Shown: positions 15,034 through 58,650, counted from the first letter of the stretch. The stretch is DNA of 64,000 bases from Escherichia coli (GCF_024223415.1 NZ_CP100500.1); one strand, 5' to 3'. Program-made: numbers and translations. The notes: a model not told the origin generated them from the sequence alone.

Positions 15034-15915
15034 ATGCACATCACCCTCCGGCAGTTGGAAGTTTTTGCAGAAGTATTGAAAAGTGGATCAACCACCCAGG
15101 CGTCGGTGATGCTGGCGTTGTCGCAATCAGCAGTGAGCGCAGCCTTGACCGACCTGGAAGGGCAGCTTGGCGTGCAACTGTTTGATCGCGTGGGGAAAAG
15201 ACTGGTTGTTAATGAACACGGGCGGCTGCTCTATCCGCGTGCGTTGGCACTGCTTGAACAGGCGGTTGAAATCGAACAACTGTTTCGCGAAGACAACGGC
15301 GCGATTCGTATCTATGCCAGTAGTACCATCGGTAACTACATTCTGCCTGCAGTTATCGCCCGTTATCGCCATGATTATCCGCAGTTGCCGATTGAACTTA
15401 GCGTTGGGAACAGCCAGGACGTGATGCAAGCGGTGCTGGATTTCCGCGTTGATATTGGCTTTATTGAAGGACCGTGCCACAGCACTGAAATCATTTCTGA
15501 ACCGTGGCTGGAAGACGAGCTGGTGGTTTTCGCCGCGCCGACTTCGCCGTTGGCCCGTGGTCCGGTCACCTTAGAACAGCTGGCCGCTGCGCCGTGGATC
15601 CTGCGTGAACGCGGTTCCGGCACGCGGGAGATTGTCGATTATCTGTTGCTGTCACATTTACCGAAGTTTGAGATGGCGATGGAATTAGGTAACTCCGAGG
15701 CAATCAAACATGCGGTGCGTCATGGGTTGGGAATTAGTTGCCTGTCGCGACGGGTGATTGAAGATCAATTGCAGGCAGGCACATTAAGTGAAGTTGCGGT
15801 CCCTCTGCCGCGCCTGATGCGTACGTTGTGGCGTATACATCATCGGCAAAAACACCTTTCCAACGCGCTACGGCGCTTTCTGGACTATTGCGATCCCGCG
15901 AATGTACCGCGTTAA
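15034..15915 (+). CDS. yeiE: LysR-family transcriptional regulator
   Basis: 293-aa ORF with N-terminal LysR HTH ([24 protein letters not shown]...). Confidence 0.9.
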
Positions 15916-16119
15916 GTTGCTGTACAAGAACATGCTGGTGCTGTGTCGATTTCGTGACGCAGCGCCCTCAGCATGCATTCGCCAGAAAAGAGATTGGCTG
16001 CTTTACTTATAATCCCTGGGCGATCATGAAGGTGTCTTATAACCGTGTATTTCTGCCGGAAGGATTGCCAATCGTCTGCTACAATCGCGCCTCATTTTTT
16101 AGATGGATAGCATTTTTGT

Positions 16120-17589
16120 ATGGTTTCCGAAACTAAAACCACAGAAGCGCCGGGCTTACGCCGTGAATTAAAGGCGCGTCACCTGACGATGATTGCCATT
16201 GGTGGTTCCATCGGTACAGGTCTTTTTGTTGCCTCTGGCGCAACGATTTCTCAGGCAGGTCCGGGCGGGGCATTGCTCTCGTATATGCTGATTGGCCTGA
16301 TGGTTTACTTCCTGATGACCAGTCTCGGTGAACTGGCTGCATATATGCCGGTTTCCGGTTCGTTTGCCACTTACGGTCAGAACTATGTTGAAGAAGGCTT
16401 TGGCTTCGCGCTGGGCTGGAACTACTGGTACAACTGGGCGGTGACTATTGCCGTTGACCTGGTTGCAGCTCAGCTGGTCATGAGCTGGTGGTTCCCGGAT
16501 ACACCGGGCTGGATCTGGAGTGCGTTGTTCCTCGGCGTTATCTTCCTGCTGAACTACATCTCTGTTCGCGGCTTTGGTGAAGCGGAATACTGGTTCTCAC
16601 TGATCAAAGTCACGACAGTTATTGTCTTTATCATCGTTGGCGTGCTGATGATTATCGGTATCTTCAAAGGCGCGCAGCCTGCGGGCTGGAGCAACTGGAC
16701 AATCGGCGAAGCGCCGTTTGCTGGTGGTTTTGCGGCGATGATCGGCGTAGCTATGATTGTCGGCTTCTCTTTCCAGGGAACCGAGCTGATCGGTATTGCT
16801 GCAGGCGAGTCCGAAGATCCGGGGAAAAACATTCCACGCGCGGTACGTCAGGTGTTCTGGCGAATCCTGTTGTTCTATGTGTTCGCGATCCTGATTATCA
16901 GCCTGATTATTCCGTACACCGATCCGAGCCTGCTGCGTAACGATGTTAAAGACATCAGCGTTAGTCCGTTCACCCTGGTGTTCCAGCACGCGGGTCTGCT
17001 CTCTGCGGCGGCGGTGATGAACGCAGTTATTCTGACGGCGGTGCTGTCAGCCGGTAACTCCGGTATGTATGCGTCTACTCGTATGCTGTACACCCTGGCG
17101 TGTGACGGTAAAGCGCCGCGCATTTTCGCTAAACTGTCGCGTGGTGGCGTGCCGCGTAATGCGCTGTATGCGACGACGGTGATTGCCGGTCTGTGCTTCC
17201 TGACCTCCATGTTTGGCAACCAGACGGTATACCTGTGGCTGCTGAACACCTCCGGGATGACCGGTTTTATCGCCTGGCTGGGGATTGCCATTAGCCACTA
17301 CCGCTTCCGTCGCGGTTACGTATTGCAGGGACACGACATTAACGATCTGCCGTACCGTTCAGGTTTCTTCCCACTGGGTCCGATCTTCGCATTCATTCTG
17401 TGTCTGATTATCACTTTGGGCCAGAACTACGAAGCATTCCTGAAAGATACCATTGACTGGGGCGGCGTAGCGGCAACGTATATTGGTATCCCGCTGTTCC
17501 TGATTATTTGGTTCGGCTACAAGCTGATTAAAGGAACCCACTTCGTACGCTACAGCGAAATGAAGTTCCCGCAGAACGATAAGAAATAA
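16120..17589 (+). CDS. lysP: Lysine-specific permease (APC family)
   Basis: 489-aa ORF, MVSETKTTEAPGLRRELKARHLTMIAIGG... Confidence 0.95.
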   Translation: MVSETKTTEAPGLRRELKARHLTMIAIGGSIGTGLFVASGATISQAGPGGALLSYMLIGLMVYFLMTSLGELAAYMPVSGSFATYGQNYVEEGFGFALGWNYWYNWAVTIAVDLVAAQLVMSWWFPDTPGWIWSALFLGVIFLLNYISVRGFGEAEYWFSLIKVTTVIVFIIVGVLMIIGIFKGAQPAGWSNWTIGEAPFAGGFAAMIGVAMIVGFSFQGTELIGIAAGESEDPGKNIPRAVRQVFWRILLFYVFAILIISLIIPYTDPSLLRNDVKDISVSPFTLVFQHAGLLSAAAVMNAVILTAVLSAGNSGMYASTRMLYTLACDGKAPRIFAKLSRGGVPRNALYATTVIAGLCFLTSMFGNQTVYLWLLNTSGMTGFIAWLGIAISHYRFRRGYVLQGHDINDLPYRSGFFPLGPIFAFILCLIITLGQNYEAFLKDTIDWGGVAATYIGIPLFLIIWFGYKLIKGTHFVRYSEMKFPQNDKK

Positions 17590-49082: not shown

Positions 49083-49767
49083 TTAAATGCCGAGTGGGAA
49101 AATATCATGGCCTTGTTCTTGCCAACTGGTGAGTTGCTGCTGTTGGGCGGAGGTTCGATTTTCACCGCACCACACCAGCAATGTACGGCCTTCGAATAGT
49201 TCAGGGCGTAGTTGATTGAGCGAGTGGGCGAGGACATCAATGCGCCATCCTTGTTGACTGGCAATCCAGCCCTCCAGCCACAGACGGGTGGTATCCTGAA
49301 TATTCCAGCCAACCACCAGCGCATCTTTACCCTGTTTTTTACGTGCCGAAGCCAGACAAATGGCGATGTAGTTGATCAGTACGCCGTCGAGGATCGCCAG
49401 CAGCGCCTGGAGAGTCGGTTGTTGGCACTGAAGCCGTCGGCGCAGAGGAATAAACAGATGTGTGGTGAGTGTCTGGGCGGGGTAATCCTGACCGCGCTCT
49501 TTGATCCACGTTCGCAGGCTATGTAGATTGCCGCTTTGCAGGTAAGTCAGTAATGTTTCTTGCTGATCGCGCCAGCCGTTCTGCACATCAACATTTTCAT
49601 TACTGAGCAGCATTTTAACTTTGCTGACCTGCACGCCGTTGTCGATCCAGCGTTTGATCTCGCGGATCCGGTCAATATCGGCATCGTTGAACAGCCGATG
49701 ACCGCCGTCTGTCCGTTGCGGTTTCAGCAATCCGTAACGCCTCTGCCACGCGCGTAACGTGACAGGG
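49083..49767 (-). pseudogene. mlrA: MerR-family curli regulator MlrA (YehV), 5'-truncated by prophage insertion
   Basis: Minus-strand translation matches MlrA from ...PVTLRAWQRRYGLLKPQRTDGGHRLFNDADIDRIREIKRW... to the native C-terminus; the first ~16 codons (MALYTIGEVALLCDIN, part of the HTH) are replaced by phage DNA. Confidence 0.85.
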
Positions 49768-49804
49768 ATTAAGGGTAAACTAACTGATTTTACAAGTTTT
49801 TATT

Positions 49805-51091
49805 TTACCCCACTTTCTTATGGGGCATACATGGGACACTTTCAGATAGTCTTTTGTTAAGGAGTTCTATCTGTTCGTGATTGTTGTCTTTCATCCATGC
49901 TCCGTAAACATTGAATACCATTTGTGCGTTTGTGTGGCCCATCTGGCTTGCGATAAAACTAGGATTAGCTCCAGCGGCAAGTGACCAGCATGCATAAGTA
50001 TGCCTGGATTGGTACGATTTTCTGTGTCTCAGACCTGCGCGTTTTAAGATACTTGTCCATGACTCCCTGATGGAGTCAACCTTATAGTGCGGTCCGGAAA
50101 ACTGCCGCTGTTTTATTACCTGAGGACTAAAAACAAAAGTGCATTTATGCACAGTACTTCTCCCATATTCCCTCTGCTTTACCTCTACAGAATGTTGCTT
50201 TCCAAGCATGGTCATTTCCGCCTGACTTTTAAGAGCATCAATAGCTGGTTGAACCAGATGAATTGTCCTTCCGGTGCCAGCATCGGTTTTTGGTGGAGTG
50301 AATTCGCCAAGTTTTGTATAATTCCTACGGATGGTTATAGTCCTTGCTTTAAGGTCTATATCTTCCCATGCCAGCGATACCAACTCCCCGTGACGAATAC
50401 CCGTGTATACAGCGAGAATCCACAGGTTTTTTGTTTGTTGATGACGGCAAGCCTCAATAAAACGAATAAATTCGTCACGGGTGAGAGGATCTGGTTTTAC
50501 CTTGGACTTTTTTAAGGGAGCCAGACCGTTAAATGGGTTTCCTGAGGTATAACCATTATCTGTTGCAAATTGAAACATTCCAGCTATGGTTGTCATATAG
50601 TAGTTTACCGTGACCACTGAGCGCCCTTTTATGGAAGAAGTCTTTCCATTAGAAAGCTTTTGGTAACCGGTCAACAAATCTCTCCTTACGAAAAGTAAAT
50701 CCTCTTTTGTTATGGATGAAACCAGTTTTTTTTCACCTAACATTGGTAACATGTTTTTAATTACTGACTGGTAACGGTTAAGTGCATTCGCACAAATCTC
50801 AATTTTCTTAAGGTCCAACCATTTTTCCGAAAGTGCCTTAACGGTTATCTCTCTTTTTCCCAGACCAAAGTGTTTCAGGTTAGGGGAATTAGGGAACTGC
50901 GCGGCGTAGTCGAAACTCCCCATTCTGATTGCAAAACAAACGGAAGTGCGAAGTTCACCTGCGATCTTCCGGTTTTTGGCGGTGTCAGGAACACCGAGGT
51001 TTTCTCTGACACGTTTGCCATTATAGTGAAACCATATACGGAGTGATCCTCCATGGTTTTCAACGCCTGTCGGGTATGATACGTTACTCAT
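49805..51091 (-). CDS. int: Phage tyrosine integrase
   Basis: 428-aa ORF; C-terminal catalytic-domain residues (RHTYACW, GHTNAQMVFNVY); transcribed toward the att junction. Confidence 0.9.
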   Translation of the reverse strand: MSNVSYPTGVENHGGSLRIWFHYNGKRVRENLGVPDTAKNRKIAGELRTSVCFAIRMGSFDYAAQFPNSPNLKHFGLGKREITVKALSEKWLDLKKIEICANALNRYQSVIKNMLPMLGEKKLVSSITKEDLLFVRRDLLTGYQKLSNGKTSSIKGRSVVTVNYYMTTIAGMFQFATDNGYTSGNPFNGLAPLKKSKVKPDPLTRDEFIRFIEACRHQQTKNLWILAVYTGIRHGELVSLAWEDIDLKARTITIRRNYTKLGEFTPPKTDAGTGRTIHLVQPAIDALKSQAEMTMLGKQHSVEVKQREYGRSTVHKCTFVFSPQVIKQRQFSGPHYKVDSIRESWTSILKRAGLRHRKSYQSRHTYACWSLAAGANPSFIASQMGHTNAQMVFNVYGAWMKDNNHEQIELLNKRLSESVPCMPHKKVG

Positions 51092-51124
51092 TAAACCTCC
51101 CAGACGTCCAGGAGCATTAACAGG

Positions 51125-51379
51125 TTAACCGGAACTTGCATTTTTGGCACCTGGTTGTTTCTGGTTTTCGATCCATCGCATAATTTCTTCGATGTTGTAC
51201 AGGCATTCACTGTAGTGCCCCGGATCACCTTCTACAGCGTAATGGCGGTATTCTTTTCCCTGCATCCATGACTTTCTTCTTGCCCGCTCAATGGTGCCAG
51301 GCTTTAGCCCTGTTGATGCAATGAGGACTCTCTCCGTACACCATTTGCTGGGGGTTATCTGATAGATGATTGTTTGCAT
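51125..51379 (-). CDS. Putative excisionase / small DNA-binding protein
   Basis: 84-aa ORF immediately upstream of int in the same orientation; assigned by position and size only. Confidence 0.5.
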   Translation of the reverse strand: MQTIIYQITPSKWCTERVLIASTGLKPGTIERARRKSWMQGKEYRHYAVEGDPGHYSECLYNIEEIMRWIENQKQPGAKNASSG

Positions 51380-51535
51380 GCCAACCTCATAAAATTTTCA
51401 TCCACGGCAGTGGCACCACACATCAAACATTCGCTTCACAACTTCACGACAGTAGAAGCCGTCAACATCTCGCGTCAGGTCATAGCGATTGCCATAACGC
51501 TGGCGCACCCATAGTTCAAATGCTTTATTCATTCT

Positions 51536-51778
51536 TTACTTCCTTTTCATGGCCCGTAATTTTTTCAGATGAGCTTCCTGCTCTGTTTCTGCCAGAATTT
51601 GTCGGTATTCCTGGTGATCGAGCCGTTCAAACAGTTCATTAAAATCGTTTATTTTTACCGACTGTGTTCTCCCATCCATTCTTCTGTACAACACAGTGTT
51701 GTTTATGCAGCGAATAATTTTTACCGGGTAGCCAGCACTATCGGTGTATATCTGACCACGTTGAATCAGAGCGAACAT
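51536..51778 (-). CDS. Hypothetical phage protein
   Basis: 80-aa ORF in the leftward early operon. Confidence 0.45.
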   Translation of the reverse strand: MFALIQRGQIYTDSAGYPVKIIRCINNTVLYRRMDGRTQSVKINDFNELFERLDHQEYRQILAETEQEAHLKKLRAMKRK

Positions 51779-51865
51779 TCCTTTATCCCCAGCGGAAAAG
51801 CGAATACAGAATAAATGCCACCGCTATTGCAACTCCTACTGCGGTGAATGCTTCAGGCCAATTCA

Positions 51866-52495
51866 TCATTTCACCTCCACGCCGATCCCGGCAATAACAC
51901 AATCCCGTTTGATAGCTTCTTTCACCCAGCGTTTATAGGTTTCCGGATGGAATTTTGCGTTTTTTCCGGTACCGCTCCAGAATGCCTTTGATGTGATATC
52001 GGGCAGGGTGATGGTCAGGCCTTTCTTCTTGCTGCCTTCAGAACTTTTGCAAAAAGTTAATGCGTCGCGTAGTTCTTTAACACACGCATAGTTTTCTGCT
52101 TTCTCTGGGTCGCCGGTACGGTGTTCAGCTTCTTGTCTGCACCATTTGATGACTTTCTCTGCGGCTGCGTGGAGACGCTGACGTTGCCAGTCGTATGTGT
52201 CGACCAGCCCATATGCGTGATTCTTTGCTTTGCTTAATTCAGCGACGAGGCATTCGGAATCAATCAAATTATTTTCCGCAGCGGACAGCGCTTGTTTAAG
52301 TCGCTCGATTTCTTGAGCCATGTAGTAGCCGGTTTTACTCCAGGTATCGACATCATCGTCACTCATATCCAGTTCCATCGACGCCATCAGAACGGCGTCG
52401 TGATAGTTCTGGCTACCGCAGGTGATTGCAACGACGTAGGAGTCACTATTTTCTCGTTTATGGATAAGTACAACTGGGTTTTTGATCTTGCTCAT
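51866..52495 (-). CDS. Hypothetical phage protein
   Basis: 209-aa ORF; no motif I can recognise. Confidence 0.55.
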   Translation of the reverse strand: MSKIKNPVVLIHKRENSDSYVVAITCGSQNYHDAVLMASMELDMSDDDVDTWSKTGYYMAQEIERLKQALSAAENNLIDSECLVAELSKAKNHAYGLVDTYDWQRQRLHAAAEKVIKWCRQEAEHRTGDPEKAENYACVKELRDALTFCKSSEGSKKKGLTITLPDITSKAFWSGTGKNAKFHPETYKRWVKEAIKRDCVIAGIGVEVK

Positions 52496-52595
52496 TCCGC
52501 ACCTCAGTAATTCATTAAAAATTTATATTCAATCAGCGCACCGAAAACGACGGACGCCAGCAGCAGACCAAACAGCATGGACAGGAGGAATGACT

Positions 52596-52820
52596 TCATC
52601 GCTTTGCCTCCCGCTGTACGATTTTGTAGGCGCGCAGGATGTCGCGTGTTTTTCCTGACAACGATGACTTAACCCAGAAAAAGCCGCTGCGGTTTTCATA
52701 GATCCCCTGTACATTAAACAGCACCGCATCAACAACGCGGTTATGCTTTTGCAATGTCAGGCAGGAACTGGTGATCACGATGTTCGCTACGGCGCCATAG
52801 TCCTGGTATTGGATTTTCAT
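52596..52820 (-). CDS. Hypothetical phage protein
   Basis: 74-aa ORF abutting the next ORF; a 31-aa hydrophobic peptide ORF (MKSFLLSMLFGLLLASVVFGALIEYKFLMNY, ~52504-52599) overlaps its stop by ATGA. Confidence 0.45.
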   Translation of the reverse strand: MKIQYQDYGAVANIVITSSCLTLQKHNRVVDAVLFNVQGIYENRSGFFWVKSSLSGKTRDILRAYKIVQREAKR

Positions 52821-53159
52821 TTACATGTTCCCCATAACGGTATCGCTCATGTCGTTAACCATGCTCTGCCAGATTTCTTTGCCGCTTTGCGTCAGCTCGT
52901 TTCCACGAACGCATTTGCTTAACAGCTGAATACCAACGGCTTCCCATTGGGGGTAATTTTCTTTGATAGCCTTCAGAGCATAACCATCGATTAAATCCCT
53001 GATACCTTTAACCCCACCGATGATGTTTACTCGTATGGATTGCCCATTGACATTAATCATGAAATGATCTCCGTTGGTGGCGGATATGTGGTTGTGCAGT
53101 GCAGCCGCATACTGATTTGCCAGCGCATTGAGGCGGAAATTTTGTGTAATGAGTGGCAT
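52821..53159 (-). CDS. Hypothetical phage protein
   Basis: 112-aa ORF, stop/start abutting neighbours. Confidence 0.5.
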   Translation of the reverse strand: MPLITQNFRLNALANQYAAALHNHISATNGDHFMINVNGQSIRVNIIGGVKGIRDLIDGYALKAIKENYPQWEAVGIQLLSKCVRGNELTQSGKEIWQSMVNDMSDTVMGNM

Positions 53160-53905
53160 TATTTACCCTCCCAACCAATCACCTGAAACAGCCCCATTTT
53201 CGGGTGATACCAGCGGGTACCGCGTGGCTCTGCCTCTGACATCATCTGATGAAATGCTTTCATGAACGGCTCAAGCTCCACGATAGCCCGGCGAGAAAGA
53301 AGACCATCTGGCGTCATAAATTCGTGCGTATCGGTTGGGATGCTGTAGGCATTGACCAGATTGCGGCACTTGGCATCAGTCATTCCGCTTTTGGCGACCA
53401 CCTGGCGATAACCGACATATCCGGCGCGCATATTTCCGCGTTTGATGTTCTCCACAGCTTTGGTGACCGTTTCGATCTTCTCTTCAACATGACTCAGGCG
53501 CTTCTGCTGGCGAACGGCATCGGCGGCCATTGCAGCGATCATCTCCATTTCCGTCAGCGGCGCGTGAGTTCGGAAATAGCTGTTAACCAGTTCGCGCTGA
53601 ACCTGCCATGCAAGAGTATCGTTAAAAGGCTTCGTCAACATCAGGTAACCAGACTCGAAAAGAATGATCCCTTTGGCAGTTCGCGCGGCAAAGGCATCAG
53701 AAAGTGACTCCGTACGTATTACGTCCGCAGTCATTTCAAGAAAATCCACCCCTTCGATAAAGTGAGAACGGTTGCGGTTAAACGCAGCACGGGCGGTACC
53801 TTCCGGGCGCTGGTGGACGTCATCAATCATTGCAAATGTCACAACACGCTGACCGCGATATTCGATTACCGGAAACTGTTTGTTGTTGATGGTTACAGTA
53901 TTCAT
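53159..53905 (-). CDS. Hypothetical phage protein, possibly antirepressor/regulatory-like
   Basis: Start placed at MNTVTINNKQFPVIEYRGQRVVTF (RBS GGAGAT upstream); domain assignment is from memory and uncertain. Confidence 0.5.
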   Translation of the reverse strand: MNTVTINNKQFPVIEYRGQRVVTFAMIDDVHQRPEGTARAAFNRNRSHFIEGVDFLEMTADVIRTESLSDAFAARTAKGIILFESGYLMLTKPFNDTLAWQVQRELVNSYFRTHAPLTEMEMIAAMAADAVRQQKRLSHVEEKIETVTKAVENIKRGNMRAGYVGYRQVVAKSGMTDAKCRNLVNAYSIPTDTHEFMTPDGLLSRRAIVELEPFMKAFHQMMSEAEPRGTRWYHPKMGLFQVIGWEGK

Positions 53906-53948
53906 TTTTATCTCCAGACAGCCCGGCGTGTAATACCGGGCATATGTA

Positions 53949-54776
53949 TTACTTAACCTGAATAAATGGTGTGTTGGCACCGCTGGTCATGTATTGCGGC
54001 AGTGTACCGTTCCACTTGTTGATGGCTTCCAGCTCCATAACGTTTGGGTTCTGGCGCAGAGCTTCACCGCGTAAACGAATAGCATCGGCTTCGGCCTGGG
54101 CTTTTGTGCGAATCGCATCTGCCTGTCCGGCAGCTTCCGCGCGCAACATGTTGGCTTCCGCTTCGCGCTGTTTTACTTCCTGCTCGCGTTGCAGGGTTTT
54201 CTGGTTGGCCGTGACTTTGGCATTAATGCTGTCGATAACGGTTGGCGGGTACTCCGGCTTACCCACATATGAGAGGCTCATTACCTGAATACCGATAGGT
54301 GTCATCTCTGCCTGAATGTCTTTAAGAGCTTCATCCAGCAGCTCAGACTTGCCGCCGTCGATAAATTTGTCAGTGGTCATTTTGCTGGCCAGTCGGTTGA
54401 GTGCGTCGGCGATCTTCTGGCGCAGGTCAGTGTCGGTAATGTCATCCACGCCTTTGCGGTAGGTCTGAAACACCGTGGTAACTTTGGATGGATCAACTTT
54501 GTAGGCCACGCCAATGTGATAGCCGATGGTTGTACCGTCACTCATCTGGAAACTGAACGGTTCATCGTAGGTCTTCATTTGTTTGAAGGTGGGGAAGATA
54601 TAAACTTCAGTATTCCAGCCAGTCCAGTAGCGACCAACACCGACCACCTCACCGACGCCTTTGTCGTCGCCCAGTTTATTTACCTTGATGCCAACATTAC
54701 CTGGTTCAACGCGATCGCAACCGACAAGGCCAATAGTCGGCAGAACAATGGCTAAAGCAAAAATAATTTTTTTCAT
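53949..54776 (-). CDS. SPFH/band-7 (prohibitin/flotillin-like) domain lipoprotein
   Basis: 275-aa ORF; lipoprotein signal MKKIIFALAIVLPTIGLVGC; SPFH-like core followed by an Ala/Glu/Arg/Gln-rich coiled-coil tail (EQEVKQREAEANMLRAEAAGQADAIRTKAQAEADAIRLRGEALRQ). Confidence 0.7.
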   Translation of the reverse strand: MKKIIFALAIVLPTIGLVGCDRVEPGNVGIKVNKLGDDKGVGEVVGVGRYWTGWNTEVYIFPTFKQMKTYDEPFSFQMSDGTTIGYHIGVAYKVDPSKVTTVFQTYRKGVDDITDTDLRQKIADALNRLASKMTTDKFIDGGKSELLDEALKDIQAEMTPIGIQVMSLSYVGKPEYPPTVIDSINAKVTANQKTLQREQEVKQREAEANMLRAEAAGQADAIRTKAQAEADAIRLRGEALRQNPNVMELEAINKWNGTLPQYMTSGANTPFIQVK

Positions 54777-54961
54777 CTTTTATCCTTAGTGAAAGAAAGA
54801 CCCTTGTAAATGGCATAAATGCAGGGCGGGGTCAGAAACGCCAGTGCAAAGCCAGAAATAACTGCTATCGTATCCTTCATGGATATAAGGAACGGAACGA
54901 TTAATCCGTAAATACATGTGATAATTGCCAGTGATATAACTATTCTGAAATAAATGTTCAT
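54773..54961 (-). CDS. Small membrane protein, translationally coupled to the SPFH lipoprotein
   Basis: 62-aa ORF with two hydrophobic helices; stop overlaps the SPFH start by 4 nt. Confidence 0.55.
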   Translation of the reverse strand: MNIYFRIVISLAIITCIYGLIVPFLISMKDTIAVISGFALAFLTPPCIYAIYKGLSFTKDKR

Positions 54962-55021
54962 GGTCCTCCTGATGTATTCGGCTTGCCTTATTTAATTGCG
55001 TCATAGTTAATTTCGTTTACG

Positions 55022-55412
55022 TCAGAATGGTTTTGTTGCCATCAGTTCGTAATATCCGGCGCTCCATGTGTCATATTTTCTGAACCATTTTTCTGTATAC
55101 TGTTTCCTGGCGATGAGTCTGCGCAGTCGTCTGATTGTTCGCTGGTGTGCGCGGGTATACTCTGTGGTTGATTCTCCACGTTTCCATATCTCATTCCTGT
55201 TGAAGATAAAACGCTTGTCAGGATAGCGTTGTCGGAATCCTGAACGTTCAAAAGCGCGGGTGGTCATAAAGAATGCCAGGTAACGAATTGCCGTTTTTCG
55301 AGTGAGGCATTTTTTTTGTTCTTCCGTGGCGTGTTACAAAAAATAACGGGCCGACGGGTGTATCATGTTTCTGTAATGCCTGGTCAATGGCGCTGGCGGT
55401 GCGGTTGTCGAT
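55022..55412 (-). pseudogene. Hypothetical phage gene split by a frameshift at a T8/A8 homopolymer
   Basis: A 57-aa ORF (MIDNRTASAIDQALQKHDTPVGPLFFVTRHGRTKK...) and the 81-aa track ORF 55022..55267 become one ~130-aa ORF if the A8 run (plus-strand T8 at ~55309-55316) is shortened by 1 nt. Confidence 0.4.
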
Positions 55413-55601
55413 CATTTCTTTATTTCTCCCGAATAACGTTCATGACTCATTACTTCCCAGTTCCGGCCGTCGTCTTTCGATAACAGCCGCCAGCGACGGT
55501 TAACCTTCAGACTGAGATATCCGGTGCGCTGTATCCGATGCGGAAATATCCGTCGGCATCGGTACAACAACAGGACCTGCAATGCCTGCCGGTGGATCCG
55601 C

Positions 55602-55817
55602 TCAGGAATGCGTGTTGCTGTTAATGCCACCGGTTTCCTCCTGAGCAGGTGCTGTTATCTGATACCCCGCTCTTTCTGCCAGCCGTATGAATGTATCCAT
55701 GCTGGCAATCAGCTCGCCATCGCGGACTTTGCAGACACCTGTGACTTGGCCATTTTCAATTGTCATAACGATCTGCACTTTTTCGCGCACAACAGATACA
55801 GGGGATAAATTAGCCAT
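55602..55817 (-). CDS. Hypothetical phage protein
   Basis: 71-aa ORF, 1-nt overlap with the upstream ORF. Confidence 0.45.
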   Translation of the reverse strand: MANLSPVSVVREKVQIVMTIENGQVTGVCKVRDGELIASMDTFIRLAERAGYQITAPAQEETGGINSNTHS

Positions 55818-56176
55818 CAGTTAATTCCTCCACTGGTATATTTTTCTTTTTCGTAATCAACAACCTCTTTTAAAAGGTTGTCTACAATTAACTTCCCCGA
55901 TTCAGTTAGATACTCAGTGTGTTGATTAATATTGATGGCATTGCGGTATGCGGCAAGTATTGCGGTCTCGCCATCCGTCCGTCCAAATTCAACACGGGTA
56001 AGACCTTCAAATCGTAATAACAGTTGTGTCATGAAGTGTTCCGTAATTTCGATGGTAGTTAACCCTCCGTCAGGAAGATTTACGATGAGAAGATTTCCTC
56101 CTGTTTTACGTTGCATCCGCTGTAATGCTGTTGTGACTATGCGGTGACGATATTTACCAATGATTTCATATGCCAT
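55817..56176 (-). CDS. Hypothetical phage protein
   Basis: 119-aa ORF. Confidence 0.5.
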   Translation of the reverse strand: MAYEIIGKYRHRIVTTALQRMQRKTGGNLLIVNLPDGGLTTIEITEHFMTQLLLRFEGLTRVEFGRTDGETAILAAYRNAININQHTEYLTESGKLIVDNLLKEVVDYEKEKYTSGGIN

Positions 56177-56360
56177 TTGTTATTTCCCGTATGCTTTCCT
56201 AAGAAACAGTATTGCAACTGACCAGTATCCTGCATTAGCCATTAATAAGGCGGTTTTATAAGCGCTTCTATTTTTCATGTATCACCATTATTTTCTGGTT
56301 GTGAAAACTCCCGACCAGAGGCCGTCATGTTTTTATGTGTGATTTTTTATTGAGTATTCT

Positions 56361-56552
56361 TTATTCGTTACGTAGTGTTTCTATATACTCGTAAGCCATT
56401 TCACAGGTCTTATTCATGGACCTGATGAGACAACATAAATAATCGTCTAACTCTCCTGAGTCGGGCGAATTCTTAAATATAAATTCAAGCATTGATGTAT
56501 TCTCTTTTATTTGTGCCGCCACTTCCTCAAGAATATTTAATGGAGTTTTCAT
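56361..56552 (-). CDS. Hypothetical phage protein
   Basis: 63-aa ORF overlapping the upstream ORF by 4 nt. Confidence 0.4.
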   Translation of the reverse strand: MKTPLNILEEVAAQIKENTSMLEFIFKNSPDSGELDDYLCCLIRSMNKTCEMAYEYIETLRNE

Positions 56553-56773
56553 GTTCTTTGCTCCTTTAATGTGTCTCTGGCGCTTCTGGCGTATTGTTGT
56601 GCAAGTAAAAAGATGTCATCCGAAAGTTCATCACATTCTTCATCACCTGAAGCCGAAATGATTAACCCCGCTTCAAGCAGTACGGCAATGTGATGAAAAG
56701 CTGTTTCCGGTTCGTTGGTGAGGCCTTTGAACATTTTCATTTTATGCTTCCTCCTGATTTTGTTTATAAGCAC
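56549..56773 (-). CDS. Hypothetical phage protein with basic N-terminus
   Basis: 74-aa ORF, N-terminus KIRRKHKMKMFK. Confidence 0.4.
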   Translation of the reverse strand: MLINKIRRKHKMKMFKGLTNEPETAFHHIAVLLEAGLIISASGDEECDELSDDIFLLAQQYARSARDTLKEQRT

Positions 56774-57161
56774 CAGTCAGTAACCACATCGGATCACAGC
56801 CAAGAACATTAGCCAGAGGAATAATCTGGCTTGCCAGAGGCTCCCTCTTGCCACTTTCCCACTGGATGATAATTTCTTCATCGAGATTGAGCAGCCTGGC
56901 GAGTTCGGCGGTTGTTAAGCCGCAGTCTTCGCGTTGGGTGCGAATCCGATTCTGGGAATTAATAGCTAAATTTTGTTTGCATAAACGTGACGCGGTGAGG
57001 CTATATTTTTGAGTTACAGCCAGGATGGAGCTGGCAAGTTCAATTAACTCAGGGTTATTGCTGCTATACAGTAGTGCACCAGCCCCTACTAAGAGCTGAA
57101 TATTCTCAAGAGCATCGTGCTGATTTGTTGGTAACCCCATATACGATGACATTTTTCTCAT
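56742..57161 (-). CDS. HTH (XRE-like) domain protein, first gene of the leftward early operon
   Basis: 139-aa ORF with a C-terminal helix-turn-helix (GLTTAELARLLNLDEEIIIQWESGKREP). Confidence 0.55.
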   Translation of the reverse strand: MRKMSSYMGLPTNQHDALENIQLLVGAGALLYSSNNPELIELASSILAVTQKYSLTASRLCKQNLAINSQNRIRTQREDCGLTTAELARLLNLDEEIIIQWESGKREPLASQIIPLANVLGCDPMWLLTGAYKQNQEEA

Positions 57162-57212
57162 CCTCTATAATTGCTTTGGTGAGTTCGATACCTATGTCAA
57201 GATAATAGGTTT

Positions 57213-57244
57213 ACCGATTTCACCTGTCAATCGGTTTATCGATT
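57213..57244. promoter_or_regulatory. Putative OL operator palindromes
   Basis: ACCGATT-N9-AATCGGT and AATCG-N6-CGATT inverted repeats, sharing half-sites with the cI-cro palindrome. Confidence 0.5.
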
Positions 57245-57250
57245 TTTTCC

Positions 57251-57276
57251 AAAAAAAAGCCCACTTAAGAGTGGGC
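57251..57276 (-). terminator. Intrinsic terminator downstream of cI
   Basis: On the minus strand, GCCCACT-cttaa-GTGGGC followed by T8. Confidence 0.75.
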
Positions 57277-57294
57277 GGGTTAAATGATTTTTGC

Positions 57295-57987
57295 TTATGC
57301 AAAACGGTGTAGTGTCATAGGCCAACTGACAATTACTTTTCCGTCAATGTGAAGTTGTTCGAAGTCTTCCGGTTCGATAGCCCAATCCTTGTAAGCTGGG
57401 TTGTCAGATATCACCGTTAGAGTATCTTTGATTTTTTGAAGTCTTTTGATGTGCGATGTTCCAGAGTATGTAAAGGCGTATATACCATCACCATTAAATG
57501 TGCGAACTGATACATCTACAAATACCAAGTCTTCAGGGTCTATTGTGCCTTTCATACTGTCGCCGTGGGCGTTTATTGCTTTGATTGCTGATGCTGGTCT
57601 GCCGCCAAAAACTCTTGATGCGTATCCTGGCTCTATCGCTATAGATCTGACAATGTCAGGAAAATCAGAGTTATAACTACCAGGTCCGCAACTATATCTG
57701 ATGTCTAAAACATCCACGACATACGAATCAGTAACCCAATCTTCAGAAATGTTACGTATTTGGTGTGAGTCTGCAGAGGTCACGATTTCCATTGGGCCAA
57801 CACCCGATGCGAGCCATTCCGGGTTAACGCCCAAAACTTTTGCTATTTCGACTGTTTTTCTGGAACCGTTGGCTTTGTTAAGTAGTTGGTTAACACTGGA
57901 CTGAGCCATACCCACTTCTTTGGCCAGCCTACCTTGCGTAAATTTTGCGTTGCGCATAGCTAAATCAAGTCGTTCTGAAAATGTCAT
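57295..57987 (-). CDS. cI: Phage CI-type repressor (N-terminal HTH, C-terminal S24 LexA-like peptidase)
   Basis: 230-aa ORF; HTH (FTQGRLAKEVGMAQSSVNQL) and C-terminal autocleavage-domain motifs (GDSM...K); divergent from cro. Confidence 0.85.
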   Translation of the reverse strand: MTFSERLDLAMRNAKFTQGRLAKEVGMAQSSVNQLLNKANGSRKTVEIAKVLGVNPEWLASGVGPMEIVTSADSHQIRNISEDWVTDSYVVDVLDIRYSCGPGSYNSDFPDIVRSIAIEPGYASRVFGGRPASAIKAINAHGDSMKGTIDPEDLVFVDVSVRTFNGDGIYAFTYSGTSHIKRLQKIKDTLTVISDNPAYKDWAIEPEDFEQLHIDGKVIVSWPMTLHRFA

Positions 57988-58020
57988 TGCGATTTTCCTC
58001 CCCTCTCTATCTTGGCTAGT

Positions 58021-58038
58021 TTATCGGCTTTCCGATAA
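58021..58038. promoter_or_regulatory. Putative OR operator
   Basis: TTATCGG-cttt-CCGATAA perfect palindrome between cI and cro. Confidence 0.6.
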
Positions 58039-58106
58039 ATATTCTAGGTTTAACGTTGAATATCGCTTTTCCTGTTGTTATTATGCGTTCAATAGGAGAT
58101 GCGATT

Positions 58107-58394
58107 ATGAAACATAAAGCCATAGAGAAAGCTATTGAGATTCTTGGAAGTCAGCAAGCCTTAGCCAAGCGATGCGGAAAGGCCCAGTCAACAGTCTGCG
58201 ATTGGTTGAACTGCAAGAACAAGATTTCACCAGAATTTGTGCCGTTATTGGTTGCAGCTGTCGACGGAAAGATCCAAGCGTATGAATTTCGTCCAGACCT
58301 ACCAGAGCTTTTTCCACATCCAAGCTTAGCGCGCACGGGGGAGGTGAAGGGCTTGTATGTCCCAGAATTACGTTCAGACAGAGATGCCATCTAG
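58107..58394 (+). CDS. cro: Cro-like HTH regulator
   Basis: ATG at 58107 with RBS AGGAGA; MKHKAIEKAIEILGSQQALAKRCGKAQSTVCDWLN (HTH); track ORF begins at an upstream TTG. Confidence 0.7.
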   Translation: MKHKAIEKAIEILGSQQALAKRCGKAQSTVCDWLNCKNKISPEFVPLLVAAVDGKIQAYEFRPDLPELFPHPSLARTGEVKGLYVPELRSDRDAI

Positions 58395-58650
58395 GTACTG
58401 CCAGGCAGACGAAGAGTGGATTCAGCAGCAGTTACAGAGGCTGCCTCCGTCACTGAGACGGAAGGTCGCCCTGAAATATGCGGAGGTATACGAAATCACT
58501 TTTGACGCTGAGCCTGTTTCATTCCGCAAGGAGAACAGAGCAAGGCACGAAGCAAACACAAGGCTCCGCCTGTTCGTGAGAAATCAGGGCAGAGCTTTAC
58601 AGGGGTATACAACTCAGCCGCCCCTGGCAGGAACGCAATCGCGCTCCTGA
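58357..58650 (+). CDS. Hypothetical phage early protein (cII position)
   Basis: 97-aa ORF with RBS GGAGGTGAAGG; overlaps the cro 3' end. Confidence 0.5.
   Translation: MSQNYVQTEMPSRYCQADEEWIQQQLQRLPPSLRRKVALKYAEVYEITFDAEPVSFRKENRARHEANTRLRLFVRNQGRALQGYTTQPPLAGTQSRS

Follow-up and report, generated by a model that had tools for sequence, protein, structure and literature searches.

The interval between positions 51380 and 57161 of a 64,000-nucleotide (nt) stretch of Escherichia coli DNA (GCF_024223415.1, NZ_CP100500.1; the whole stretch is hereafter called the window) is best explained overall, at a probability of about 0.8, as the repressor-controlled early-left operon, of the leftward-promoter (PL) type, of a phi467/phiP27-type temperate phage residing in mlrA. 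The interval of 5.8 kb holds 18 genes, all on the minus strand, between xis and an S24 LexA-like repressor gene (cI; 57295–57987), which faces a YdaS-type cro-like gene (58107–58394; Pfam family YdaS_toxin). As a mosaic early-left operon of a known type of phage it is ordinary, and only two of its modules go beyond routine: (i) a cassette around a small ParE_like protein, which includes a micro-open reading frame (micro-ORF), and (ii) a gene pair for an SPFH lipoprotein and a protein with two transmembrane (TM) segments. A preliminary description, made from the sequence, had taken the interval for uncharacterised early-left cargo; as probably co-transcribed and largely uncharacterised early-left cargo it is supported by the results below.

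Predicted control of the operon

Scanning 7.4 kb for sigma-70 promoters, we found a single strong match, a PL-like promoter with 11 of 12 consensus positions. Along the minus strand past the cI stop codon, an intrinsic terminator, this promoter and the gene of a helix-turn-helix (HTH) protein follow one another (Table 1). Two operator-like palindromes of the form ATCG-N6-CGAT lie on the promoter, one touching the −35 element (57230–57243) and one filling the spacer and overlapping the −10 element (57205–57218), and a third copy of this type is located in the gap between cI and cro (58023–58036). Five sites in the window match ATCGGTTTNCCGAT with at most one mismatch, and three of them are the two promoter copies and the cI–cro copy. 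Between the promoter and xis, the minus strand carries only two terminator-like sites, both weak and both within coding sequence, and an Rfam scan of positions 49500–58500 returned no RNA family. The promoter, operator and terminator motifs suggest that the region is likely one operon with a PL/OL-type (leftward promoter and operator) arrangement. In the lysogen, the S24 repressor probably binds the ATCG-N6-CGAT operators over the strong promoter and would thereby keep all 18 genes off, while the terminator after cI would insulate the operon from cI transcription. Loss of the repressor would release a single leftward transcript through the accessory genes to xis and int, a reach that we infer from the common orientation, the tight coupling of the genes and the presence of only the two weak intragenic terminator-like sites.

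The preliminary description had expected modules for anti-defence, defence or toxin-like functions at this place. One toxin-like gene is indeed present (ParE_like, see below), whereas no known defence system was recognised by PADLOC and no PHROG family annotated as anti-defence was matched by the interval ORFs. An unlikely alternative to the repressed operon is that the SPFH pair, the ParE_like cassette and the ORF6N gene form lysogen-expressed cargo or a defence island, that is, morons with promoters of their own that act against other phages. Exclusion genes are often found beside the repressor gene of a prophage, as with rexAB of lambda, the SPFH pair moves among unrelated phages, the 62-aa (amino acid) membrane protein is a 'moron' in PHROGs, and there is a gap upstream of both the SPFH pair (60 nt) and the micro-ORF (82 nt); moreover, paaR2-paaA2-parE2 of CP-933P is expressed with the repressor (PMC8630535). 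In neither gap did the scan find a promoter-like site, however, the terminator parts cI from the operon, and the sole strong promoter overlaps the operator-like sites, a layout that argues for repression in the lysogen and suits early lytic accessory roles better than lysogen-expressed defence. In the P2-like phage P88, the SPFH pair is likewise part of the early lytic operon, where cox lies on one side of it and the replication gene on the other. In addition, the search of PADLOC-DB 2.0 with 20 proteins (the 18 of the interval, cI and xis) gave no match for 18 of them, and the HTH protein and cI matched only the generic HTH portions of the RmrA, capH, HTH_VI and PDC-M64B models.

Phage type and closest relatives

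Synteny, nucleotide identity, the repressor/cro switch and the adjacency of xis and int place the interval among the early-left operons of the phi467/phiP27 type. It aligns with the Shiga toxin (Stx) phage phi467 (LN997803) over 69% of its length at 90.6% identity and with phiP27 (NC_003356, genes L03–L10) over 28% at 93.9% identity, and it shares with them the order repressor, HTH gene, small genes, SPFH lipoprotein and/or ORF6N gene, DUF4222, xis and int. In contrast to the present prophage, phi467 is without the SPFH pair and has no annotated gene at the position of ParE_like, and phiP27 is without the 119-aa, ParE_like and 130-aa genes, the 209-aa block and the two 63-aa genes. phiP27 is also a myovirus with a replication module of the DnaB/DnaC type, whereas the prophage studied here carries the helicase-primase module of phi467, and its integration site in mlrA distinguishes it from both phages. 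Among 5426 complete E. coli genomes, none covers at least 80% of the interval and 1088 contain parts of it, which signals mosaicism. Identical prophages in mlrA are found in public E. coli drafts (NCBI), of which we read 24 carrying contigs.

The chromosome is of E. coli type up to mlrA (yehV; 49083–49769, minus strand), and the prophage starts at about 49770. The junction removes the mlrA promoter and roughly the first 14 codons, and the native frame resumes as '...PVTLRAWQRRYGLLKPQ' (49083–49830). Insertions in mlrA (yehV) are linked to loss of curli expression.

That the interval represents decaying DNA of a cryptic prophage, with genes that are no longer selected, is quite unlikely. One gene is frameshifted, the disruption of mlrA could mark a fixed remnant, and the visible prophage amounts to only 14 kb; all other genes are nevertheless intact with conserved starts and Shine-Dalgarno sites, int, xis, cI, cro and the helicase, primase, RusA-like and Q-like genes are intact as well, identical copies recur in several independent assemblies, and the micro-ORF bears a strong signature of purifying selection across relatives.

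Comparison with lambda and the search for recombination genes

In position and logic, the interval resembles the PL operon of lambda: for both, the layout is that of a leftward early operon under repressor control, with xis and int last and with many non-essential accessory genes before them. It differs in that homologues of N, cIII, kil, gam, bet, exo, ral, ea10, ea22 and ea8.5 are absent, its first gene encodes an Xre/DicA-type HTH protein instead of the N antiterminator, and the stretch from cI to the promoter is free of rexAB-like genes. We compared all ORFs with 20 lambda proteins (int to cI) by BLASTP and phmmer and obtained only the int–int similarity: nothing better than an expectation value (E) of 0.16 was found for Exo, Bet and Gam, and no alignment with E <0.4 for Kil, CIII, Ral and N, where the small size of the proteins limits sensitivity. 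PHROG, NCBIfam and recorded Pfam matches of the interval ORFs likewise include no recombination, Kil, CIII, Ral or N family; for the unknown ORFs, Pfam has no match on record. The earlier statement that exo/bet/gam and kil/cIII functions are not recognisable here was therefore correct, and no interval ORF showed homology to the standard lambdoid early genes in the lambda set that spans int to cI. For its phage type, the region is nothing out of the ordinary in this respect: phi467 and phiP27 have a like left operon, and their full records contain no exo/bet/gam, RecT or Erf annotation. The missing Red module is thus common to the two closest sequenced relatives and not peculiar to the interval.

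A divergent annealing protein or nuclease inhibitor hidden among the 209-aa, 130-aa and 119-aa proteins, for which one could invoke the position equal to that of the lambda Red genes, the several ORFs without family assignment and the very basic 130-aa protein, is highly improbable given that nothing resembles lambda Exo, Bet or Gam, the matched PHROG families are of unknown function with none annotated for recombination, coiled coil is predicted for most of the 209-aa protein, whose block occurs in only 4 of 85 related loci and is thus not core, and neither phiP27 nor phi467 has an annotated exo/bet/gam, RecT or Erf.

Gene layout

The preliminary description had counted at least 14 co-oriented, tightly packed ORFs; our map contains 18 minus-strand genes, including one frameshifted pseudogene and one 32-aa gene missed by gene callers (Table 1). 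The contents it had listed (a 209-aa protein, a 31-aa hydrophobic peptide, an antirepressor-like protein, the SPFH pair and an HTH protein beside cI) are all found on this strand, and the abutting or ATGA-overlapping stops and starts it had pointed out appear as five ATGA-type 4-nt overlaps and two overlaps of 1 nt. About 96% of the interval is coding, only ~230 of 5782 nt are non-coding, the majority of gaps range from −29 to +8 nt, and no more than four are longer than 40 nt (142, 82, 60 and 43 nt). GGAG-type Shine-Dalgarno sequences are present at most starts. PHROG families were matched by 16 of the 19 ORF pieces scanned (whole-protein E 2e-13 to 7e-115), these pieces representing 17 gene products with the split gene counted as two pieces. 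Since, in addition, the interval genes recur in >150 related loci, we regard the ORFs as real genes and not as chance ORFs.

Table 1 Genes and control elements of the early-left operon, in order of position in the window
Feature	Position	Strand	Remarks
Integrase (tyrosine)	49805–51091	minus	adjoins truncated mlrA
xis, DUF1233	51125–51379	minus	distal end of co-oriented array, with integrase
44-aa protein	51398–51532	minus	
DUF4222 protein, 80 aa	51536–51778	minus	
~28-aa TM peptide	51783–51869	minus	
209-aa coiled-coil protein	51866–52495	minus	
31-aa hydrophobic TM peptide	52504–52599	minus	
74-aa protein	52596–52820	minus	
112-aa protein	52821–53159	minus	
ORF6N antirepressor-like protein, 248 aa	53159–53905	minus	phrog_1726 1.6e-69; PF10543
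SPFH/Band_7 lipoprotein, 275 aa	53949–54776	minus	phrog_200 7e-115; Band_7
2-TM protein, 62 aa	54773–54961	minus	phrog_1130
130-aa basic protein, pseudogene	55022–55415	minus	phrog_1886
ParE_like protein, 72 aa, GTG start	55412–55630	minus	PF24732
71-aa mildly acidic protein	55602–55817	minus	phrog_340
119-aa protein	55817–56176	minus	phrog_1737
32-aa micro-ORF	56180–56278	minus	coding signature across relatives
Second 63-aa acidic protein, isoelectric point (pI) 4.5	56361–56552	minus	phrog_6882
First 63-aa acidic protein, pI 4.6	56549–56740	minus	phrog_4587
HTH regulator, 136 aa	56742–57152	minus	phrog_4836 5e-47
PL-like sigma-70 promoter (predicted)	57230–57202	minus	TTGACA (57230–57225), 17-nt spacer, TATTAT (57207–57202)
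Intrinsic terminator (predicted)	57259–57276	minus	just past cI stop; GCCCACT-CTTA-AGTGGGC then T8; 7-bp stem, 5 GC pairs

Core genes and exchangeable cassettes

We determined the presence and absence of the interval genes in 85 loci anchored on the SPFH protein and, separately, in 84 loci anchored on the ParE_like protein. Near-universal among the 85 SPFH-anchored loci are the genes for the 2-TM protein (83), the 71-aa protein (84), the micro-ORF (83), the HTH protein (83), DUF4222 (83) and the 44-aa protein (73). The set of 119-aa, ParE_like and 130-aa genes is variable (31–32 loci), as are the two 63-aa genes (22–26 loci), and the block of 112-, 74-, 31- and 209-aa genes occurs in 3–9 of the loci, essentially phi467 and the identical prophages. 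The stretch between the SPFH gene and DUF4222 falls into at least six size classes of 0.4 to 2.8 kb, and prophages with the same integrase (99% identity) differ in their cargo. The operon is therefore a string of exchangeable cassettes, for which we propose early, non-essential roles. Describing the whole interval as variable cargo holds for these cassettes but not for the micro-ORF, the 71-aa gene, the SPFH pair, DUF4222 and the HTH gene, each of which is present in at least 83 of the 85 loci.

The slot between ORF6N and DUF4222 holds other cargo in related prophages. In the prophage of E. coli JNEC-KY202 in yecE, it contains a 189-aa 'beta clamp domain-containing protein' (PGAP name; L001 3523–4092), and such a clamp-like protein, encoded among phage early genes, may merit attention.

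The ParE_like cassette

The cassette (55022–56278) comprises five genes: the micro-ORF and the genes for the 119-aa, 71-aa, ParE_like and 130-aa proteins. Its gene order is kept in 65 of the 84 ParE_like-anchored loci of Enterobacterales prophages (53–100% identity), and 11 more are without only a detectable 71-aa gene. The ParE_like gene is accompanied by the 119-aa gene in 83 loci, by the 130-aa gene in 78 and by the 71-aa gene, immediately upstream, in 66, and the presence of the SPFH pair and the ORF6N gene around the cassette varies, as does the repressor allele. Because shared descent of the prophages inflates such co-occurrence counts, the argument for a cassette rests on its persistence amid varying flanks.

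The 72-aa ParE_like protein is basic (pI 11.3) and matches PF24732 (ParE_like) with E 3.7e-17 over positions 2–65 of the 67 in the model; all 51 sampled relatives match the same family. By this domain model of the ParE/RelE type, it is a putative toxin-like protein of a conserved cassette. A profile search of 1.84 billion representative proteins yielded only 132 relatives, mostly of 65–85 aa, among which single sub-threshold Pfam matches occur to HigB_toxin (5e-3), HigB-like (2e-2) and ParE_toxin (5e-2). R48, H63 and Y66 hardly vary within the family; this Arg...His..Tyr set close to the C-terminus presumably recalls YoeB/RelE-type RNases more than gyrase-poisoning ParE, and we take it as a lead only. 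A few members are C-terminal domains of proteins of 147–226 aa (P0271, P0288, P0292, P0312), with N-terminal extensions that match neither the 119-aa nor the 130-aa family.

The 119-aa protein (phrog_1737; 'Fels-1 prophage protein' in some records) has a confidently predicted fold (predicted local distance difference test, pLDDT, 92), and a fold search with the model returned only uncharacterised prophage proteins in AFDB50 and nothing in BFVD. The predicted fold is an orphan one, shared by nothing annotated. The gene of the 119-aa protein travels along with ParE_like; its homologue in Kosakonia and Yersinia rohdei lies upstream of the ParE_like gene with an ATGA overlap. The 71-aa gene, a core gene of the operon type in its own right, overlaps the ParE_like start by 29 nt. 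The 130-aa gene is split into ORFs of 55 and 81 aa by one extra A in a run at ~55310–55317 (A8 here, A7 in about 28 relatives). The two pieces match the two halves of phrog_1886, which the repaired 130-aa protein matches with E 1.6e-59. The identical draft prophages share the frameshift, which is therefore either real or a systematic homopolymer error, and transcriptional slippage on the A-run could partly rescue the gene. In two remote metagenomic members of the ParE_like family, a gene of 131–133 aa follows with a 4-nt overlap and no detectable homology to the 130-aa family.

The 71-aa protein ends in a tail, G-[TI]-[DN]-S-N-[TS]-[HN]-[ST], that is conserved only where a ParE_like gene follows and overlaps (55602–55630); phiP27-type copies, which have no ParE_like gene, end earlier. 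This tail may be conserved only through the DNA that it shares with the ParE_like start.

The micro-ORF, which follows an 82-nt gap after the second 63-aa gene, encodes a basic 32-aa product, MKNRSAYKTALLMANAGYWSVAILFLRKAYGK. It is absent from the PGAP and draft gene calls examined and has no PHROG family. In 157 loci, we found 47 distinct versions of 32–38 aa, all with open frames; the motif is YKTA.L.A..G....IA.L[YF]LRKAYG[KR]. Pairwise comparison of 50 DNA versions gave a synonymous share of differing codons of 38% in frame and of 5–6% in the other two frames; the frame itself is open in all 50 versions, and the other two contain stops in 60% and 88%. This codon pattern amounts to a strong signature of purifying selection across relatives and indicates that the micro-ORF is a real gene that annotation pipelines have missed.

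The most likely role of the ParE_like protein, which we propose tentatively, would be that of a RelE/YoeB-style growth inhibitor checked by one of its neighbours. That the cassette as a whole is an undescribed functional unit, an early toxin module with new-fold partners directed at host shut-off or against competing phages, is possible but doubtful. A precedent for a toxin-antitoxin pair in such surroundings is known from CP-933P, a cryptic prophage of E. coli O157:H7, where the pair is co-transcribed with the CI-like repressor PaaR2 (PMC8630535). The two systems are alike in that a gene of the ParE toxin superfamily, in the present case a putative member by its Pfam match, lies in a lambdoid immunity region with a YdaS-type Cro analogue. 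They differ in that the ParE_like gene described here is part of a predicted repressed early operon, separated from cI by 1.7 kb and a terminator, and encodes a protein of only 72 aa, and in that the family profiles match no solved toxin-antitoxin protein, the deposited PaaA2-ParE2 structures included. Sequence and profile searches of the PDB gave no meaningful match for the 209-aa, 112-aa, 119-aa, 130-aa, 71-aa and ParE_like proteins or their families, and a literature search on PF24732 and on the phiP27 early genes found nothing useful.

The SPFH lipoprotein pair

The genes for the 62-aa 2-TM protein and the 275-aa SPFH protein are joined by an ATGA overlap, and thus translationally coupled, and occur together in 83 of 84 loci. 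The pair is shared with P88, as stated above, and the lipoprotein gene is also found in the left arm of Stx2a phages. Band_7 (PF01145) is on record for the exact SPFH protein, and a weak similarity to HflC/HflK extends over residues 105–239 (26 bits, compared with an NCBIfam cut-off of 134). The protein carries the lipobox LVGC with Asp at position +2. Under the +2 rule of lipoprotein sorting in E. coli, Asp at this position leads to retention in the inner membrane, and we therefore predict an inner-membrane lipoprotein that faces the periplasm. HflKC also faces the periplasm at the inner membrane. The phage protein thus shares with HflK and HflC the Band_7 domain, the weak similarity and the predicted location, but would be held by a lipid anchor at LVGC instead of an N-terminal TM helix. 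It differs from bacterial SPFH proteins in being phage-borne, in its place in early operons and in its 62-aa 2-TM partner. This partner shows no match to NfeD: it has no recorded Pfam match, and its sole PHROG family is phrog_1130 ('membrane protein'). No PADLOC defence model covers the pair, and our literature search on phage SPFH proteins found no paper.

With low confidence, we suggest that the pair might serve as a membrane scaffold for superinfection exclusion or envelope remodelling early in infection. Action of the pair on FtsH as an HflKC mimic, which would fill the role of lambda CIII, is less likely than the toxin-module reading of the ParE_like cassette and is unsupported.

Other genes of the operon and the right arm

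The first gene of the operon encodes the 136-aa Xre/DicA-like regulator with a C-terminal HTH (Pfam HTH_19, HTH_3) and a match to the DicA model NF007257 (1e-11) below the curated cut-off. Residues 3–58 of the protein, that is, its N-terminal ~55 aa, match phrog_4587, the family of the first 63-aa protein, at 2.6e-7 at the profile level. The two 63-aa genes are joined by an ATGA overlap. We considered whether the HTH N-terminus is paralogous to the two 63-aa proteins, and these to each other, and rejected this: pairwise BLASTP finds nothing, and the PHROG profile match is the sole link.

The ORF6N protein matches PHROG antirepressor families and Pfam ORF6N over its full length. As an antirepressor, it would derepress its own or a co-resident prophage; it differs from other ORF6N/KilA-N (Ant-like) antirepressors in that its gene lies in the left operon and not in a separate immI-type region. 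Between the SPFH stop and the ORF6N start lies a GC-rich hairpin without a T-run (53941–53921, minus strand; GCCCGG, 9-nt loop, CCGGGC), which could be an mRNA-stability or processing element.

The genes for the 112-, 74-, 31-, 209- and ~28-aa proteins (51783–53159) form a rare cassette in common with phi467. The 209-aa protein has no Pfam or NCBIfam match, and its AlphaFold model (pLDDT 64) is mostly coiled coil. Relatives are labelled 'Ead/Ea22-like' or 'ATPase' in some databases; we discarded the former label, because hhalign with a profile of 37 sequences gave a probability of 0.4% against lambda Ea22 and of 0.05% against the P88 protein that bears this label. In Stx and lambdoid phages, xis commonly has DUF4222 and the 44-aa gene beside it; those of the interval show 96% identity to JLK-2012, and the genes also occur in BP-4795 and YYZ-2008.

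The visible right arm consists of the phi467-type helicase and primase, an HNH endonuclease, a RusA-like resolvase and a Q-like antiterminator. The HNH/NUMOD4 homing-endonuclease-like gene (58868–59500, plus strand) lies between the cro region and the helicase, where phi467 has a different, 122-aa gene. At its right edge, the window contains overlapping genes for the RusA-like Holliday-junction resolvase and the Q-like antiterminator (63162–63891, plus strand); apart from RusA, no recombination-related function was seen in the visible prophage. phi467 carries stxA and stxB (15718–16953 of its record); the present window ends before the late region.

Discussion

Reading the interval as a repressed early-left operon with a toxin-like cassette has to be weighed against several points. 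Operon structure and repression are predicted from motifs, and the perfect ATCG-N6-CGAT pattern is not significantly enriched (4 found and 1.5 expected, with 9 of 100 shuffles reaching 4), so that the putative operators are proposed on the placement of the pattern and its near-perfect copies and not on enrichment. Internal promoters below the reach of a consensus scan could drive lysogenic expression of the SPFH pair or of other genes, in keeping with the 'moron' filing of the 62-aa protein. The window stops at 64000 and shows ~14 kb of prophage, and the completeness and inducibility of the prophage lie beyond that view. For the cassette, the ParE_like label derives from one Pfam family, and the profile finds no ParE, RelE or HigB structure among all PDB sequences; an antitoxin is not assignable among the 119-aa, 71-aa and 130-aa proteins, which match no Pfam, NCBIfam or PDB family; and the best downstream partner candidate, the 130-aa protein, is frameshifted here although the ParE_like gene is intact.

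The repressor-controlled early-left operon of a phi467/phiP27-type phage nevertheless remains the best explanation, and the present analysis provides a gene-by-gene map of an operon type that is common in E. coli, with near-universal genes set apart from exchangeable cassettes. The closest phages are Stx-converting, and early genes of this type could therefore affect induction in pathogenic strains. The ParE_like cassette and the SPFH pair, both portable modules, are the only parts that we consider worth bench work. Should the cassette turn out to work as a toxin system whose partners are new, the catalogue of toxin-antitoxin systems would gain a small family, and the cassette might be a phage tool for host shut-off.

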